Of a stretch of 19,115 nt of DNA, positions 2,645-19,115 are shown one piece after another. The translations under genes were made by a program, and so were the position numbers. The notes beneath the pieces were generated by a model. That model saw only the letters and a program-made list of their open reading frames with translations, searched no databases and had not been told where the DNA came from. The DNA comes from a virus (taxonomy: Duplodnaviria; Heunggongvirae; Uroviricota; Caudoviricetes). The stretch is from the IMG/VR virus record IMGVR_UViG_2617270954_000002; one strand, 5' to 3'. Numbering within the stretch: position 1 is the stretch's first letter; every line of letters starts with the position of its first letter.

Positions 2645-2834
2645 ACTACAGGCGCTGCGTCAGGCGCGCCTTGATTTATTAACCGGTAAACGGGTGGTGT
2701 CTGTCCAGAAAGATGGTCGCAGAATTGAATATACGGCGGCTTCTCTGGATGAGCTTAACCGGGCGATCAATGATGCGGAGTCGGTACTGGGGACAACCCG
2801 ACGTCGCCGTCGTCCGCTGGGAGTGAGGTTATGA
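2628..2834 (+). CDS. W: head-tail joining protein gpW-like
   Basis: 68 aa, same length as lambda gpW, with motif LLTGKRVVSVQKDGRRIEYTAAS; overlaps the A stop and the B start (ATGA). Confidence 0.85.
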   Translation: MVTVAELQALRQARLDLLTGKRVVSVQKDGRRIEYTAASLDELNRAINDAESVLGTTRRRRRPLGVRL

Positions 2835-4423
2835 AACGAACGCCTGTCCTGATTGATGTGAACGGCGTTCCGCTTCGTGAGAGTCTCAGCTACAACGGGG
2901 GCGGCGCAGGATTTGGCGGGCAAATGGCTGAGTGGTTGCCACCGGCGCAGAGTGCCGATGCAGCCCTGCTGCCCGCGTTGCGTCTGGGGAATGCCCGGGC
3001 AGATGATCTGGTGCGCAATAACGGAATAGCGGCCAATGCGGTGGCCCTGCATAAGGATCACATTGTCGGGCATATGTTTCTGATTAGCTACCGTCCGAAC
3101 TGGCGCTGGCTGGGGATGCGGGAGACCGCGGCAAAAAGTTTTGTCGATGAGGTGGAGGCGGCCTGGTCAGAATACGCAGAAGGGATGTTTGGTGAGATCG
3201 ACGTGGAAGGGAAACGCACGTTTACGGAATTTATCCGTGAAGGTGTGGGCGTTCATGCGTTTAACGGCGAAATCTTTGTGCAGCCGGTCTGGGATACGGA
3301 GAGCACGCAACTGTTTCGTACGCGTTTTAAAGCCGTGAGTCCGAAACGGGTGGACACGCCAGGACACGGTATGGGGAACCGTTTTCTGCGGGCCGGTGTG
3401 GAGGTCGATCGATATGGTCGTGCCGTTGCGTACCATATCTGTGAGGATGATTTTCCTCGCTCCGGGAGTGGACGATGGGAACGGATCCCGCGTGAACTTC
3501 CCACCGGGCGTCCGGCCATGCTGCATATTTTCGAGCCGGTGGAGGACGGGCAGACCCGTGGAGCCAATCAGTTTTACAGCGTAATGGAACGGCTGAAGAT
3601 GCTCGATTCCCTGCAGGCAACACAGCTTCAGTCGGCCATAGTGAAGGCGATGTATGCAGCGACGATTGAAAGTGACCTTGATACCGAAAAGGCCTTTGAA
3701 TATATCGCCGGTGCGCCGCAGGGGCAGAAGGATAATCCGCTTATTAATATTCTGGATAAGTTCTCCACCTGGTATGACACGAATAGCGTGACGCTGGGCG
3801 GTGTCAAAATTCCGCACCTTTTCCCCGGTGATGATCTGAAACTTCAGACCGCGCAGGATTCAGACAATGGATTTTCGGCGCTTGAACAGGCGCTGCTGCG
3901 GTATATCGCCGCCGGTCTTGGCGTTTCCTACGAACAGTTGTCCCGTGATTACTCGAAGGTCAGTTATTCAAGTGCCCGCGCATCCGCCAATGAGTCGTGG
4001 CGCTATTTTATGGGGCGGCGAAAATTTATTGCGTCCCGGCTGGCCACGCAGATGTTTTCCTGCTGGCTGGAAGAGGCACTTCTTCGGGGGATTATTCGTC
4101 CGCCACGGGCACGTTTTGATTTTTATCAGGCGCGTTCAGCCTGGTCACGGGCTGAGTGGATTGGTGCCGGAAGAATGGCCATTGACGGGCTCAAGGAGGT
4201 TCAGGAATCGGTGATGCGTATTGAGGCCGGACTGAGCACGTATGAGAAAGAGCTGGCGCTGATGGGCGAGGATTATCAGGACATTTTCCGCCAGCAGGTC
4301 AGGGAATCTGCAGAGCGGGAAAAAGCCGGACTCTCACGTCCGGTGTGGATAGCGCAGGCGTATCAGCAGCAGATAGCGGAGAGTCGCAGGCCGGAAGAGG
4401 AGACAACACCACGTGAGACGTAA
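2831..4423 (+). CDS. B: portal protein gpB-like
   Basis: 530 aa (lambda gpB about 533 aa); long blocks recalled as matching lambda B, e.g. FEPVEDGQTRGANQFYSVME, LLRYIAAGLGVSYEQLSR, GRMAIDGLKEVQESVM. Confidence 0.9.
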   Translation: MKRTPVLIDVNGVPLRESLSYNGGGAGFGGQMAEWLPPAQSADAALLPALRLGNARADDLVRNNGIAANAVALHKDHIVGHMFLISYRPNWRWLGMRETAAKSFVDEVEAAWSEYAEGMFGEIDVEGKRTFTEFIREGVGVHAFNGEIFVQPVWDTESTQLFRTRFKAVSPKRVDTPGHGMGNRFLRAGVEVDRYGRAVAYHICEDDFPRSGSGRWERIPRELPTGRPAMLHIFEPVEDGQTRGANQFYSVMERLKMLDSLQATQLQSAIVKAMYAATIESDLDTEKAFEYIAGAPQGQKDNPLINILDKFSTWYDTNSVTLGGVKIPHLFPGDDLKLQTAQDSDNGFSALEQALLRYIAAGLGVSYEQLSRDYSKVSYSSARASANESWRYFMGRRKFIASRLATQMFSCWLEEALLRGIIRPPRARFDFYQARSAWSRAEWIGAGRMAIDGLKEVQESVMRIEAGLSTYEKELALMGEDYQDIFRQQVRESAEREKAGLSRPVWIAQAYQQQIAESRRPEEETTPRET

Positions 4424-5918
4424 TCTTTCACACATTATTGCAGCAGCATTCAATGAACCGCTGCTTCTGGAGCCCGCCTATGCGCGGGTTTTCTTTTGCG
4501 CGCTCGGGCGCGAGATGGGGGCAGCAAGTCTTTCGGTACCACAACAGCAGGTACAGTTTGATGCTCCCGGAATGCTGGCTGAAACGGACGAGTACATGGC
4601 CGGAGGTAAACGACCGGCCCGTGTTTACCGGGTGGTGAACGGTATTGCTGTACTGCCGGTGACAGGCACGCTGGTGCACCGGCTGGGCGGTATGCGGCCA
4701 TTTTCCGGAATGACAGGCTATGACGGCATTGTCGCCTGTCTTCAGCAGGCAATGGCAGATAGCCAGGTGCGGGGCGTACTGCTGGACATTGACAGTCCGG
4801 GCGGGCAGGCCGCCGGTGCGTTTGACTGTGCTGACATGATTTACCGCCTCCGTCAGCAGAAGCCGGTCTGGGCACTGTGCAATGACACGGCCTGTTCTGC
4901 AGCCATGCTGCTGGCGTCGGCCTGCTCCCGACGGCTGGTTACCCAGACATCCCGTATCGGCTCCATTGGTGTGATGATGAGCCATGTCAGCTATGCCGGT
5001 AATCTGGCGCAGGCCGGTGTGGATATCACGCTGATTTACTCAGGGGCGCACAAGGTGGATGGCAATCAGTTTGAAGTCTTACCGGAAGAGGTGCGTCAGG
5101 ACATGCAGCAGCGGATTGATGCGGCGCGCCGGATGTTTGCCGAAAAAGTGGCGATGTATACCGGTCTGTCTGTTGATGCAGTCACGGGAACAGAGGCCGC
5201 CGTTTTTGAAGGTCAGTCCGGCATTGAGGCCGGGCTGGCGGATGAATTAATCAATGCGTCGGATGCCATCAGTGTGATGGCCACGGCGCTGAACAGTAAT
5301 GTCAGAGGAGGCACTATGCCGCAATTAACTGCAACGGAAGCTGCCGCGCAGGAGAACCAGCGAGTGATGGGGATCCTGACGTGTCAGGAAGCGAAAGGAC
5401 GTGAACACCTTGCCACGATGCTGGCAGGACAACAGGGCATGAGCGTTGAACAGGCCCGGGCGATTCTGACCGCGGCAGCACCACAGCAGCCGGTGGCATC
5501 CACGCAGAGTGAAGCCGATCGCATTATGGCGTGTGAAGAGGCTAAAGGTCGTGAACAACTGGCGGCAACGCTGGCGGCGATGCCGGAGATGACGGTGGAA
5601 AAAGCCCGCCCGATCTTGGCTGCCTCACCGCAGGCGGATGCCGGGCCCTCACTTCGTGATCAGATCATGGCCCTGGATGAGGCAAAAGGGGCAGAAGCGC
5701 AGGCTGAAAAACTGGCGGCGTTTCCCGGAATGACGGTGGAGGCTGCCCGCGACATTCTGTCCTCATCGCCGGATAAAGCAGAACCGGTCTCTGCATCCAC
5801 AACTGCCCTGTTTGAACATTTCATGGCGAATCATTCACCGGCAGCGGTGCGGGGTGGCGTGTCACAGACGTCAGCAGACGGTGATGCGGACGTGAAAATG
5901 CTCATGGCCATGCCATGA
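4413..5918 (+). CDS. C: prohead protease/scaffold protein gpC-like (S49/ClpP-type fold), C-terminal scaffold domain
   Basis: 501 aa; N-terminal FNEPLLLEPAYARVFFCAL and the VWALCND..SAA..LASA / TSRIGSIGVMM region match recalled lambda gpC; overlaps the B stop. Confidence 0.85.
   Translation: MRRNLSHIIAAAFNEPLLLEPAYARVFFCALGREMGAASLSVPQQQVQFDAPGMLAETDEYMAGGKRPARVYRVVNGIAVLPVTGTLVHRLGGMRPFSGMTGYDGIVACLQQAMADSQVRGVLLDIDSPGGQAAGAFDCADMIYRLRQQKPVWALCNDTACSAAMLLASACSRRLVTQTSRIGSIGVMMSHVSYAGNLAQAGVDITLIYSGAHKVDGNQFEVLPEEVRQDMQQRIDAARRMFAEKVAMYTGLSVDAVTGTEAAVFEGQSGIEAGLADELINASDAISVMATALNSNVRGGTMPQLTATEAAAQENQRVMGILTCQEAKGREHLATMLAGQQGMSVEQARAILTAAAPQQPVASTQSEADRIMACEEAKGREQLAATLAAMPEMTVEKARPILAASPQADAGPSLRDQIMALDEAKGAEAQAEKLAAFPGMTVEAARDILSSSPDKAEPVSASTTALFEHFMANHSPAAVRGGVSQTSADGDADVKMLMAMP
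5316..5918 (+). CDS. Nu3: nested in-frame scaffold protein (Nu3-like), internal start within the C frame
   Basis: In-frame ATG at 5316 preceded by a strong Shine-Dalgarno (AGAGGAGG, 5304-5311); about 600 nt, close to the recalled lambda Nu3 length; shares its stop with C. Confidence 0.5.
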   Translation: MPQLTATEAAAQENQRVMGILTCQEAKGREHLATMLAGQQGMSVEQARAILTAAAPQQPVASTQSEADRIMACEEAKGREQLAATLAAMPEMTVEKARPILAASPQADAGPSLRDQIMALDEAKGAEAQAEKLAAFPGMTVEAARDILSSSPDKAEPVSASTTALFEHFMANHSPAAVRGGVSQTSADGDADVKMLMAMP

Positions 5919-5954: not shown

Positions 5955-6301
5955 ATGGTGACGAAAACCATCACTGAACAGCGTGCGGAAGTACGTATTT
6001 TTGCCGGTAATGATCCGGCTCATACCGCCACAGGCAGCAGCGGGATTTCTCAGCAACACCGGCACTGACGCCCCTGATGCTGGATGAAGCCACCGGGAAA
6101 CTGGTGGTCTGGGACGGACAGAAAGCCGGTAGTGCGGCTGGCATACTGGTACTGCCGCTTGAAGGCACAGAGACGGTGCTGACCTATTACAAGTCGGGGA
6201 CCTTTGCGACGGAGGCAATCCGCTGGCCTGACAGTGTGGATGAACACAAAAAGGCAAATGCCTTTGCCGGCACAGCCCTGAGTCACGCGGCTCTGCCGTA
6301 A
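5955..6301 (+). pseudogene. D: head decoration protein gpD-like, interrupted by a frame break (candidate pseudogene or sequencing indel)
   Basis: ATG at 5955 gives MVTKTITEQRAEVRIFAGNDPAHTATGSSGISQQHRH then TGA at 6066-6068. The rest of the D homolog (LTPLMLDEATGKLVVWDG...YKSGTF...AFAGTA) continues to 6301 in the -1 frame. Lambda gpD is recalled as one continuous 110 aa protein. Confidence 0.6.
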
Positions 6302-6358: not shown

Positions 6359-7387
6359 ATGGGATTGTTTACGACCCGCCAGTTACTCGGTTATACCGAA
6401 CAAAAAGTTAAATTCCGTGCGCTATTTCTGGAGCTGTTTTTCCGCCGTACGGTGAATTTCCACACCGAAGAGGTGATGCTGGACAAAATTACCGGAAAAA
6501 CGCCGGTGGCGGCCTATGTCTCCCCGATCGTTGAAGGAAAAGTGCTGCGCCATCGTGGTGGTGAAACCCGCGTGTTGCGTCCGGGCTACGTCAAGCCGAA
6601 ACACGAATTTAATTACCAGCAGGCGGTGGAGCGCCTTCCCGGTGAAGATCCGGCTCAGCTGAACGACCCGGCCTACCGTCGTCTGCGTATCATCACTGAT
6701 AACCTCAAACAGGAAGAGCACGCTATTGTGCAGGTGGAAGAAATGCAGGCGGTGAATGCCGTGCTGTATGGCAAATATACGATGGAAGGAGACCAGTTCG
6801 AGAAAATTGAGGTTGATTTTGGCAGATCGACGAAGAATAACATCATACAGGGTAGCGGTAAGGAGTGGTCAAAACAGGACCGTGACACGTTCGACCCGAC
6901 ATATGATATCGACCTTTTCTGTGATCAGGCCAGTGGTCTTGTGAATATTGCCATTATGGACGGTACCGTCTGGCGTCTGCTGAATGGCTTTAAGCTGTTC
7001 CGCGAAAAAATGGATACCCGTCGCGGTTCAAATTCACAACTCGAAACGGCAGTGAAAGACCTGGGCGCAGTGGTATCCTTCAAGGGGTATTACGGCGATC
7101 TGGCCATTGTGGTAGCGAAAACATCTTATGTGGCAGAGGACGGTACCGAAAAACGTTATCTGCCGGAGGGCACGCTGGTCCTGGGAAATACGGCTGCTGA
7201 GGGCATTCGTTGCTATGGTGCCATTCAGGATGCGCAGGCGTTGTCCGAAGGTGTGGTGGCCTCTTCCCGTTATCCGAAACACTGGCTGACCGTGGGCGAT
7301 CCGTCCTGTGAATTCACCATGACGCAGTCCGCTCCGCTGATGGTGCTGCCGGATCCGGATGAGTTTGTGGTGGTACAGGTGAAATAA
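6359..7387 (+). CDS. E: major capsid protein gpE-like
   Basis: 342 aa (lambda gpE 341 aa); motifs PGYVKPKHE, AIVQVEEMQAV, KLFREKMDTRRGSNSQLETAVKDLG and FTMTQSAPLMVLPDPDEFV match recalled lambda E. Confidence 0.92.
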   Translation: MGLFTTRQLLGYTEQKVKFRALFLELFFRRTVNFHTEEVMLDKITGKTPVAAYVSPIVEGKVLRHRGGETRVLRPGYVKPKHEFNYQQAVERLPGEDPAQLNDPAYRRLRIITDNLKQEEHAIVQVEEMQAVNAVLYGKYTMEGDQFEKIEVDFGRSTKNNIIQGSGKEWSKQDRDTFDPTYDIDLFCDQASGLVNIAIMDGTVWRLLNGFKLFREKMDTRRGSNSQLETAVKDLGAVVSFKGYYGDLAIVVAKTSYVAEDGTEKRYLPEGTLVLGNTAAEGIRCYGAIQDAQALSEGVVASSRYPKHWLTVGDPSCEFTMTQSAPLMVLPDPDEFVVVQVK

Positions 7388-15646: not shown

Positions 15647-15669
15647 TATTATTTTACTCATGTTCTAAC

Positions 15670-15700
15670 TGATTTAATATTTATATCGAACACTGATAAT
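15670..15700 (+). promoter_or_regulatory. candidate sigma70-type promoter for the lipoprotein gene (weak call)
   Basis: AT-rich stretch with a -10-like GATAAT (15695-15700) about 20 nt upstream of the ATG and weak -35-like hexamers (TGATTT/TTAATA) about 17-19 nt further upstream; no strong consensus. Confidence 0.2.
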
Positions 15701-15719
15701 TATTCTATTGGTTAGCTAT

Positions 15720-16058
15720 ATGAACAAAACGATTTTATTCTGCACGATTATTGCCTTAACAGGATGTAAGTCTTTGGATTACGTAAAATCCGGAAAACCT
15801 GTAATGGAAGGTAATTCATTAAAAAATATTGATGAATTGTCAGGCTGCATATCCAGACAATGGGCTGGTAATGGAACACCTATAACATCCCTTCCTATTG
15901 AGAATGGGGTAAGCCTTTTAGTTCCACAGGCTATGGGGGGATATGATGTTGTGCTTGATATCAAAAAAGCAGGAAATGGCAGTAGTTTTACTCTTTATGA
16001 ACGTGTACCAGCATTAACGCCAAAAATTTTTGCTGATAGTGTTAATGCATGTAAATAA
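15720..16058 (+). CDS. small secreted lipoprotein of unknown function (phage moron); mature protein about 97 aa, predicted outer-membrane lipoprotein
   Basis: ORF 15708..16058, with ATG at 15720 preferred over the TTG at 15708. N-terminus MNKTILFCTIIALTGC is a lipoprotein signal peptide with lipobox LTGC; residue after the Cys is Lys (not Asp), consistent with Lol export to the outer membrane. The gene is AT-rich within a GC-rich operon. Confidence 0.6.
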   Translation: MNKTILFCTIIALTGCKSLDYVKSGKPVMEGNSLKNIDELSGCISRQWAGNGTPITSLPIENGVSLLVPQAMGGYDVVLDIKKAGNGSSFTLYERVPALTPKIFADSVNACK

Positions 16059-16082
16059 TAGTTAATCCTGTCGTAACTCATG

Positions 16083-16110
16083 AGCCGCCTTTTGGGCGGC
16101 TTTGTTGTTT
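16083..16110 (+). terminator. candidate rho-independent terminator downstream of the lipoprotein gene
   Basis: Stem AGCCGCC (16083-16089), loop TTTTG, stem GGCGGCT (16095-16101), followed by TTGTTGTTT. Confidence 0.55.
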
Positions 16111-16124
16111 ATGGAGTGTGAGGA

Positions 16125-19115
16125 ATGGGTAAAGGAAGCAGTAAGGGGCATACCCCGCGCGAAGCGAGGGACAACCTGAAGTCCACGCAGCTGCTGAGTG
16201 TGATCGATGCCATCAGCGAAGGGCCGGTTGAAGGTCCGGTGGACGGATTAAAAAGCGTGCTGCTGAACAGTACGCCGGTGCTGGACAGTGAGGGGAATAC
16301 CAATATATCCGGTGTCACGGTGGTGTTCCGGGCAGGTGAGCAGGAGCAGACACCGCCGGAGGGATTTGAATCCTCCGGCTCCGAGACGGTGCTGGGTACG
16401 GAAGTGAAATATGACACGCCGATCACCCGGACCATCACGTCGGCAAACATCGACCGTCTGCGCTTTACCTTCGGTGTGCAGGCACTGGTGGAAACCACCT
16501 CAAAGGGGGACAGGAATCCGTCGGAAGTCCGCCTGCTGGTTCAGATCCAGCGTAACGGTGGCTGGGTGACGGAAAAAGACATCACCATTAAGGGCAAAAC
16601 CACCTCGCAGTATCTGGCCTCGGTGGTGGTGGATAACCTGCCGCCGCGCCCGTTTAATATCCGGATGCGCAGAATGACGCCGGACAGCACCACAGACCAG
16701 CTGCAGAACAAAACGCTCTGGTCGTCATACACCGAAATCATCGATGTGAAACAGTGCTACCCGAACACGGCACTGGTCGGCGTGCAGGTGGACTCGGAAC
16801 AGTTCGGCAGCCAGCAGGTGAGCCGTAATTATCATCTTCGCGGGCGCATTCTGCAGGTGCCGTCGAACTATAACCCGCAGACGCGGCAATACAGCGGTAT
16901 CTGGGACGGAACGTTTAAGCCAGCATACAGCAACAACATGGCCTGGTGTCTGTGGGATATGCTGACCCATCCGCGCTACGGCATGGGGAAGCGTCTCGGT
17001 GCGGCGGATGTGGACAAATGGGCGCTGTATGTCATCGGCCAGAATTGCGACCAGTCGGTGCCGGATGGCTTTGGTGGCACGGAGCCGCGCATCACCTGTA
17101 ATGCCTACCTGACCACACAGCGCAAGGCGTGGGATGTGCTCAGCGATTTCTGCTCGGCGATGCGCTGTATGCCGGTATGGAACGGGCAGACGCTGACATT
17201 CGTGCAGGACCGGCCGTCGGATAAGGTGTGGATCTATAACCGCAGCAATGTGGTGATGCCGGATGATGGCGCGCCGTTCCGCTACAGCTTCAGCGCCCTG
17301 AAAGACCGCCATAATGCCGTTGAGGTGAACTGGATTGACCCGGATAACGGCTGGGAGACGGCGACAGAGCTTGTGGAGGACACGCAGGCCATTGCCCGTT
17401 ACGGTCGTAACGTCACGAAGATGGATGCCTTTGGCTGTACCAGTCGGGGGCAGGCACACCGCGCCGGGCTGTGGTTGATTAAAACGGAGCTGCTGGAAAC
17501 GCAGACCGTGGACTTCAGCGTGGGCGCAGAAGGGCTTCGTCATGTACCGGGCGATGTCATTGAAATCTGCGATGATGACTATGCGGGTATCAGCACCGGC
17601 GGGCGCGTGCTGGCGGTGAACAGCCAGGCGCGGACACTGACGCTCGACCGTGAAATCACGCTGCCATCCTCCGGTACCACGCTGATAAGCCTGGTTGACG
17701 GAAGTGGCAATCCGGTCAGCGTGGAGGTTCAGTCCGTCACCGACGGCGTGAAGGTAAAAGTGAGCCGTGTTCCTGACGGTGTTGCTGAATACAGCGTATG
17801 GGGGCTGAAGCTGCCGACGCTGCGCCAGCGACTGTTCCGCTGCGTGAGTATCCGTGAGAACGACGACGGCACGTATGCCATCACCGCCGTGCAGCATGTG
17901 CCGGAAAAAGAGGTCATCGTGGATAACGGGGCGCACTTTGACGGCGAACAGAGTGGCACGGTGAACGGTGTCACGCCGCCAGCGGTGCAGCACCTGACCG
18001 CAGAAGTCACTGCAGACAGCGGGGAATACCAGGTGCTGGCCCGCTGGGACACGCCGAAGGTGGTGAAGGGCGTGAGCTTCCTGCTTCGCCTGACCGTGGC
18101 AGCGGATGACGGCAGTGAGCGGCTGGTCAGCACGGCCCGGACGACGGGAACCACTTACCGCTTCACACAACTGGCTCTGGGGAACTACAGGCTGACAGTC
18201 CGGGCAGTAAATGCGTGGGGGCAGCAGGGCGATCCGGCGTCGGTATCGTTCCGGATTGCCGCACCGGCAGCGCCGTCGCGGATTGAGCTGACGCCGGGCT
18301 ATTTTCAGATAACCGCCACGCCGCATCTTGCGGTTTATGATCCGACGGTACAGTTTGAGTTCTGGTTCTCGGAAAAGCGGATTGCGGATATCAGGCAGGT
18401 TGAAACCACAGCACGCTATCTTGGCACGGCGCTGTACTGGATAGCCGCCAGTATCAATATCAAACCGGGCCATGATTATTATTTTTATATCCGCAGTGTG
18501 AATACTGTTGGCAAATCGGCATTCGTGGAGGCTGTCGGTCGGGCGAGCGATGATGCGGAAGGTTACCTGGATTTTTTCAAAGGAGAGATAGGGAAAACAC
18601 ATCTGGCTCAGGAGCTGTGGACGCAGATTGATAACGGTCAGCTTGCGCCTGACCTGGCTGAAATCAGGACGTCCATTACGGATGTCAGCAATGAAATCAC
18701 GCAGACTGTCAATAAGAAACTGAAAGACCAGAGTGCGGCAATCCAGCAGATACAGAAGGTTCAGGTTGATACAAATAATAACCTGAACAGCATGTGGGCT
18801 GTGAAGCTGCAGCAGATGCAGGACGGACGCCTTTATATCGCGGGTATTGGTGCCGGTATTGAAAACACCCCTGACGGCATGCAGAGTCAGGTGCTGCTGG
18901 CGGCAGACAGGATTGCGATGATTAATCCTGCGAATGGCAACACAAAGCCGATGTTTGTTGGTCAGGGCGATCAGATATTCATGAACGACGTGTTCCTGAA
19001 ACGCCTGACGGCTCCCACCATTACCAGCGGCGGTAATCCTCCGGCATTTTCCCTGACACCGGACGGGCGGCTGACGGCGAAAAATGCCGATATCAGCGGT
19101 AACGTGAATGCGAAC
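16125..19115 (+). CDS. J: tail tip/host specificity protein gpJ-like (central tail fibre), 3'-truncated by the window end
   Basis: ATG at 16125 with GGAG upstream; 997 in-frame codons with no stop to the last base. N-terminus [34 protein letters not shown] and most of the region appear near-identical to recalled lambda gpJ. Not in the supplied ORF track because it has no in-window stop. Confidence 0.9.

Follow-up and report, generated by a model that had tools for sequence, protein, structure and literature searches.

We analysed the head gene region of a 19,115-nucleotide (nt) viral sequence (Caudoviricetes; IMG/VR record IMGVR_UViG_2617270954_000002; the whole stretch is hereafter called the window) and found that the Nu3-type scaffold nested in its prohead protease gene (4413-5918, plus strand) contains three tandem copies of a short helical module. 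These modules correspond to the Tri boxes of the phage-21-type protease/scaffold, and we consider it likely that they serve as contact sites for procapsid assembly. Judged from its sequence, the window holds a phage-21-type head module of a lambdoid phage or prophage.

The original prediction had placed three consecutive units of roughly 45 amino acids (aa) in this scaffold domain. Each of the three peptides it quoted is present exactly in the translation of 4413-5918, beginning at aa 318 (nt 5364; VMGILTCQEAKGREHLATMLAGQQGMSVEQARAILTAAAPQ), aa 371 (nt 5523; IMACEEAKGREQLAATLAAMPEMTVEKARPILAASPQ) and aa 418 (nt 5664; IMALDEAKGAEAQAEKLAAFPGMTVEAARDILSSSP), 2-8 nt away from the estimated starts of about 5359, 5521 and 5656. 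The length was also a fair description, with consecutive starts 50 and 47 aa apart and each repeat made up of a 36-39-aa core and a 9-14-aa linker. Pairwise Smith-Waterman scores between the units were 101, 71 and 108, compared to a mean of 22-26 (standard deviation 4-5, maximum 44-53) over 2000 shuffles, giving z scores of 11-16, and a hidden Markov model (HMM) of the unit produced exactly three matches of note on the 501-aa protein (i-Evalues 1e-15 to 5e-18, 45-54 bits). The three tandem units are therefore real, and are laid out with the segments around them as follows.

5346-5492, plus strand: unit 1, with a core at 5373-5477 (aa 321-355) and in addition the ancestral N-terminal helix AQENQRVMG; HMM score 49 bits; the Tri1 box of phage 21 maps to 5383-5486.
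5478-5522, plus strand: linker 1, rich in Pro, Gln, Ala and Ser and predicted to be disordered; AlphaFold2 predicted local distance difference test score (pLDDT) below 50 at Nu3 residues 55-63.
5523-5630, plus strand: unit 2 (aa 371-406), IMACEEAKGREQLAATLAAMPEMTVEKARPILAASP; HMM score 53.6 bits; the GenBank 'Tri box' maps to 5523-5633.
5631-5663, plus strand: linker 2, with an SLRDQ motif ahead of unit 3 that is common to three-unit proteins of other genera; AlphaFold2 pLDDT about 56.
5664-5771, plus strand: unit 3 (aa 418-453), the peptide quoted above; HMM score 45.2 bits; the Tri3 box maps to 5664-5777.
5802-5915, plus strand: C-terminal tail, made up of a helix (TALFEHFMANH), a disordered stretch and a terminal helix (DADVKMLMAMP).

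Across the family the unit follows the consensus ERxRIxxILxxEEAKGRExLAxHLAxxTxMSVExAKxxLAAAP, in which I, A, G, R, A, A and L are invariant or nearly so, with G22 and R23 near-invariant. Unit 1 is the ancestral-type copy and lies nearest to the single unit of lambda; its N-terminal helix, ENxR[IV]MGIL, is present family-wide, and it is 77% identical to unit 1 of the related protein P0215 and 56% identical to the lambda-type unit. Unit 3 is the most diverged copy, and in the E. coli phage-21 lineage the near-invariant Arg of its EAxGR motif is replaced by Ala (GAE, not GRE), while GRE is retained in unit 3 of the Salmonella and Providencia proteins and of P0215. In the tail, the helix TALFEHFMANH is similar to a unit's first helix. 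A Pfam search returned no family covering the scaffold unit, and a Protein Data Bank (PDB) sequence search with the whole protein gave matches limited to the S49 domain, with no solved structural relative of the unit. A search of the unit profile against a 5.8-billion-protein set yielded only short fragments that were uninformative on architecture.

Comparison with phage 21 accounts for all three units. The gene matches phage 21 genes 5/6 with 95.6% nt identity over 100% coverage and 481 of 501 aa identical, and the phage 21 products gp5/gp6 (head-tail preconnector/scaffold) are alike in architecture, unit positions, nested start and ribosome-binding site; the 20 aa differences cluster in unit 3 and shortly beyond it (aa 433-454). 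The GenBank record M81255.1 ('Bacteriophage 21 head gene operon') lists three repeat_region features in gene 6, named 'Tri1 box', 'Tri box' and 'Tri3 box' and described as 'function unknown; putative', which at an offset of +2912 fall at the positions given above and coincide with the HMM cores of the three units. We take Smith & Feiss 1993 (Gene 126:1-7) to be the source paper of this record. The triple unit is thus already known, having been annotated in phage 21 three decades ago, and the same three-unit architecture occurs in the isolated phages PhiR12, ev017, 4A7, 1W and 3W; the Nu3 part of the window is 99% identical at the aa level to its counterpart in isolated phage PhiR12_2_star, and three IMG/VR contigs match it at 100%. 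Our addition is a modest one, namely a census of unit number across relatives together with rare natural alleles of two to four units.

The gene appears to encode two proteins that share their last residue, the S49 protease gp5 and a predicted 200-aa scaffold, gp6, translated from an internal ATG. The features on which this rests are given below.

4413-5918, plus strand: homologue of phage 21 gene 5 and lambda C, a 501-aa S49 prohead protease that begins at a GTG and ends in a scaffold domain, assigned from the open reading frame (ORF) list, its translation and PHROG 53.
4848-5291, plus strand: Peptidase S49 domain, aa 146-293 (Pfam PF01343, E = 7e-35).
5305-5309, plus strand: GGAGG, ribosome-binding site of the nested scaffold gene, read from the sequence and annotated alike in M81255.1 and OL657228.1.
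5316-5918, plus strand: nested in-frame homologue of phage 21 gene 6 and lambda Nu3, a 200-aa scaffold with an ATG start and a C-terminus in common with gp5; the corresponding coding sequence in both phage 21 records maps here at offset +2912.

PHROG 53, 'head maturation protease', spans the product end to end (E = 2e-226), and three scaffold PHROGs (8399, 17040 and 8940) each match its C-terminal part in three stretches. The SppA structures 3rst and 4kwb align with aa 77-290 (E about 3e-16, PDB sequence search), and Ser162 (codon 4896-4898), in the motif N-D-x-x-C-S-A, is aligned with Ser166 of lambda gpC, reportedly the nucleophile of that enzyme (Medina et al. 2010). With the S49 domain ending ahead of the units and the start at 5316 matching that of phage 21 gene 6, the units fall in the Nu3/scaffold part of the gpC-like protein, where they had originally been placed. 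The surrounding head genes are collinear with the phage 21 annotation: portal (2831-4423), protease/scaffold (4413-5918), decoration protein (5956-6301, frameshifted) and an E-type major capsid protein (6359-7387; Phage_cap_E, E = 2e-65).

We then consider unit number in the relatives. The unit HMM identified one unit in lambda gpC (58.6 bits) and one in phi80 gpC (60.8 bits), as against three each in phage 21, the window and Gifsy-1, so that the single lambda unit given in the original prediction is correct and lambda does not carry the same three. Using the iterated unit HMM, we surveyed gpC-like proteins drawn from 1.8 billion sequences, taking the 149 best representatives of clusters at 50% identity (P0037, of the 150 listed, was left out); 95 had exactly one unit and 52 had none detectable, many of the latter being fragments. 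Three units were seen only in P0215 (59% identical), and two matches only in P0214, a truncated relative of the query, so that unit number is one in 95 of the 97 unit-bearing clusters. A similar picture emerged from a phage collection, where 20 of 124 records matched the whole three-unit scaffold and the other 104 showed less than 60% identity, nearly all of those listed matching query aa 7-71 (unit 1) only (tblastn). Salmonella prophages, Gifsy-1 among them, carry three-unit arrays, as do Salmonella partial proteins, a Providencia alcalifaciens prophage, the metagenomic proteins P0060, P0064 and P0073, and P0215; one E. coli protein (P0027) has four units. All 84 IMG/VR and related loci had three units. 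A locus search with a single protein returned only near-identical three-unit loci, and a genome-contig scan with one pattern gave six loci, including the Providencia three-unit case and two alphaproteobacterial single-unit cases.

Lambda gpC/gpNu3 (NC_001416, lambdap05/06) is otherwise alike in its homologous S49 domain (60% identity), its nested in-frame scaffold, its conserved unit and the gene order portal, C, D, E, and the C-terminal tails align as homologues (lambda tail ALDRLM...DLLNTPV). The two differ in that the lambda unit stands behind a long low-complexity segment, whereas the window protein, with its three units, is nearly devoid of one. The last unit ends 48 residues ahead of the C-terminus in the window protein, compared to a family median of 53. 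Gifsy-1 STM2605 and the related Salmonella and Providencia gpC homologues share three units in the same order and an SL(R/S/K)D-type motif before unit 3, but differ in having about 58% scaffold identity, GRE kept in unit 3 and a longer C-terminal tail. The idea of an expansion relative to lambda is therefore right, but the triplication is neither new nor specific to the window, because the same units are annotated in M81255.1 and present in the Gifsy-1, Salmonella and Providencia prophages, and the copies themselves are saturated at synonymous sites.

Closer inspection of that divergence shows that the copies arose by an old tandem duplication and have been kept by selection at the protein rather than the DNA level. 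Between units, nt identity is 54-66%, with synonymous divergence (dS) of 1.5-3.0, which is saturated, and nonsynonymous divergence (dN) of 0.26-0.53; differences fall mainly at third codon positions, and where two units share a residue the codons differ synonymously in about half of the cases. Tandem Repeats Finder reported no DNA-level repeat at the units, and a second repeat search gave only 12-18-nt pairs at chance level. Because dS is saturated and dN much lower, because the changes favour third positions and because the repeat is invisible in DNA, we regard the copies as old and as maintained by selection on the protein. All listed multi-unit proteins, P0027 included, carry an SL(R/K/S)D-type motif just ahead of the last unit, and this shared motif favours a single origin of the array followed by recombination. 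In an unbootstrapped neighbour-joining tree of the adjacent protease segment (106 columns), however, the main multi-unit clade does not include P0215 and P0073, so that the array may have expanded more than once, or the protease and scaffold parts may have recombined.

The feature is widespread in E. coli, where BLAST placed the phage-21-type Nu3 tail at 2,914 places in 1,867 of 5,426 complete genomes, about a third of them. A 57-nt piece of unit 2 (5567-5623) was found at 2,832 places in complete E. coli genomes; set against the tail count, the presence or absence of this segment indicates that at least about 97% of copies retain unit 2. Rarely, in-frame insertions and deletions lying within units or between them have altered the number, and exceptions of this kind were found by length class among the 120 closest full-length proteins.

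451 aa (P0181): a hybrid of units 1 and 2 followed by unit 3, through an exact 150-nt deletion at a shared CGTGAACA.
452 aa (P0207): unit 1 and unit 3.
472 aa (P0202): unit 1, the C-terminal half of unit 2 and unit 3.
482 aa (P0131): unit 2 without its last helix, through a 57-nt deletion between short direct repeats.
551 aa (P0095 and P0096): four units, through a 150-nt insertion, with an N at the assembly junction.

Alleles with two, about 2.5 and four units lie in E. coli prophages (loci L008 6001-7356, L010 6001-7449 and L007 6001-7656, respectively). The two-, 2.5- and four-unit alleles that we examined sit in intact-looking head modules. There the capsid protein matches phage 21 gp7 at 99-100% identity, and the portal and protease domains match their counterparts in the window at 98-99%. 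Several longer relatives are aberrant (P0094, 657 aa; P0173, 721 aa; P0179 and P0180, 577 aa) and are probably decayed prophages: one carries an internal duplication of 156 aa that starts where the protease domain ends and reaches into unit 3, and the others are fused directly after unit 3 to unrelated, possibly tail-fibre-like, sequence.

To consider what the units may do, we turned to a structural model of the 200-aa scaffold, which AlphaFold2 built from 27 aligned relatives with a mean pLDDT of 63 and a predicted template modelling score of 0.26. The model contains three short helices per unit, those of unit 1 at Nu3 residues 6-21, 30-37 and 44-53 with pLDDT of 73-80, as well as two further tail helices at residues 160-173 and 190-196. 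The linkers are of low confidence and the units adopt no fixed arrangement relative to each other. Structure prediction, which had been proposed as a check on the repeats, models each of them as a small three-helix module on flexible linkers.

We propose that each unit would fold as such a module and would provide a protein-protein contact site for the major capsid protein, another scaffold chain or the portal. A phage-21 scaffold would then present three such sites per chain, compared with one plus a long disordered spacer in lambda. In nested protease/scaffold genes the shared C-terminal domain is understood to bring the protease into the procapsid. Because the protease shares the C-terminus of the scaffold here too, the modules would carry it into the procapsid, where it would then degrade the scaffold. 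In lambda, Nu3 is an essential scaffold that interacts with itself as well as with B (portal), C (protease) and E (capsid protein), and that is degraded by C (PMC3224144; PMC10695390); it is required for portal incorporation and is cleared by the protease before DNA packaging (PMC3224144). The C-terminal helix-turn-helix coat-binding domain of P22 gp8 offers an analogy rather than a homologue, being likewise a small helical module in a flexible scaffold with a proposed contact to the shell, but it is a single terminal module without a fused protease; a fold or sequence match of the units to the P22-type coat-binding domain was looked for and none was found. Tandem three-helix-bundle binding repeats of bacterial surface proteins (protein A, GA module, Ebh/Embp) are also among the nearest known systems. 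An effect of unit number on scaffold valency or capsid assembly, as first suggested, is plausible. The wider idea that the unit is the elementary contact module of Nu3-type scaffolds, with its copy number setting scaffold valency, is one we entertain only tentatively.

Several points weigh against a contact role for the units. In most scaffolds it is the extreme C-terminus, not an internal module, that binds coat protein, and the conserved tail (5802-5915) is therefore a competing candidate that could be the capsid-binding part in place of the units. Unit 3 lacks the near-invariant Arg, and variants with two to four units beside a near-identical capsid protein suggest that an exact valency of three may be dispensable.

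A serious alternative, although on balance an unlikely one, is that the units set the length or bulk of the scaffold, acting as a structured stand-in for the disordered N-terminal part of lambda Nu3 (about 120 residues), so that their number would matter through total length and not through how many binding sites there are. The scaffold is 200 aa here (5316-5918) and 201 aa in lambda (L006 715-1320) despite three units versus one, and the lambda unit lies at Nu3 residues 126-161, about where unit 3 sits in the window protein (117-152). That two- to four-unit variants accompany a near-identical capsid protein fits a length role as well. A simple spacer is nevertheless difficult to reconcile with purifying selection on each copy and the retention of family-conserved residues, with the unit-2 segment being held by about 97% of E. 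coli copies (2,832 of 2,914), and with the wide range of total length among single-unit relatives (415-500 aa).

We think it less probable still that the units, instead of binding the capsid, direct docking of or cleavage by the S49 protease, or bind the portal in building a portal-protease-scaffold initiator. S49 enzymes process their own C-termini, as in the SppA structure 4kwb, and Pro/Gln-rich linkers are situated between the units; the unit, however, is conserved even where the linkers are not. The interaction of lambda Nu3 with B and C and its requirement for portal incorporation (PMC3224144) would agree with a docking or portal role; none of our observations distinguishes this reading from capsid binding.

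It is very improbable that the Tri boxes act at the DNA or RNA level, for instance as a series of binding sites for a protein or as a signal for translation, with the peptide repeat as a by-product. GenBank does list them as repeat_region features on DNA, and the phage 21 record OL657228.1 marks two CII-consensus matches in the region, corresponding to the pattern TTGYN6TTGY at 5321-5334 and 5555-5568 (minus strand) in the window, the second inside unit 2. Yet the pattern occurs twice in the window where 3.5 matches are expected by chance, no DNA-level repeat was detected, and the units differ mainly at third codon positions, as described above. Finally, a recent expansion or assembly artefact peculiar to the window is refuted by the same architecture in phage 21, isolated phages, Gifsy-1 and Providencia, as well as by saturated dS and the occurrence of the Nu3 tail in 1,867 complete E. 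coli genomes.

Some other features of the window deserve mention. Within the protease, an S49 segment (RRMFAEKVAMYTGLSVDAV; 5127-5183, aa 239-257) is faintly like helices 2-3 of the scaffold unit (HMM i-Evalue 0.009, 4.6 bits), as are the corresponding segments of phage 21, Gifsy-1 and phi80, which could be chance or could hint at the source of the unit. The adjacent decoration gene (5956-6301), a homologue of phage 21 shp and lambda D, has a 1-nt deletion at about 6049 relative to phage 21 (GGGATTT-CTC versus GGGATTTCCTC); its frame stops after about 37 codons and resumes as the ORF 6077-6301, reflecting either a defective prophage or a sequencing error. Further downstream, about 480 nt (15647-16124) separate the end of an I-like tail gene from the start of a J-like gene (its ATG lies at about 16125 and its frame continues past the end of the window), and a 116-aa ORF in this gap (15708-16058, TTG start), which had no Pfam match, could be a small moron gene. 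A 625-aa ORF on the minus strand (16725-18602), antisense to the J-like tail gene, had only a sub-threshold Pfam hit and is most likely spurious.

As a discovery the triple unit carries little weight, since it is long annotated in phage 21 and widespread. Its value is as a pointer to the most conserved element of lambda-type scaffolds, present in three selected copies in the phage-21 lineage and in other numbers in rare variants, and variation in unit number offers an easy genetic route to studying the contacts that a disordered scaffold makes with the shell, the portal or itself. If the units are indeed contact modules whose number sets scaffold valency, they would gain a role where the 1993 annotation gave 'function unknown', and E. 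coli prophages with 2, about 2.5, 3 and 4 units, otherwise near-identical in portal, protease domain and capsid protein, would constitute a natural allelic series for relating scaffold valency to procapsid nucleation, yield and size fidelity.

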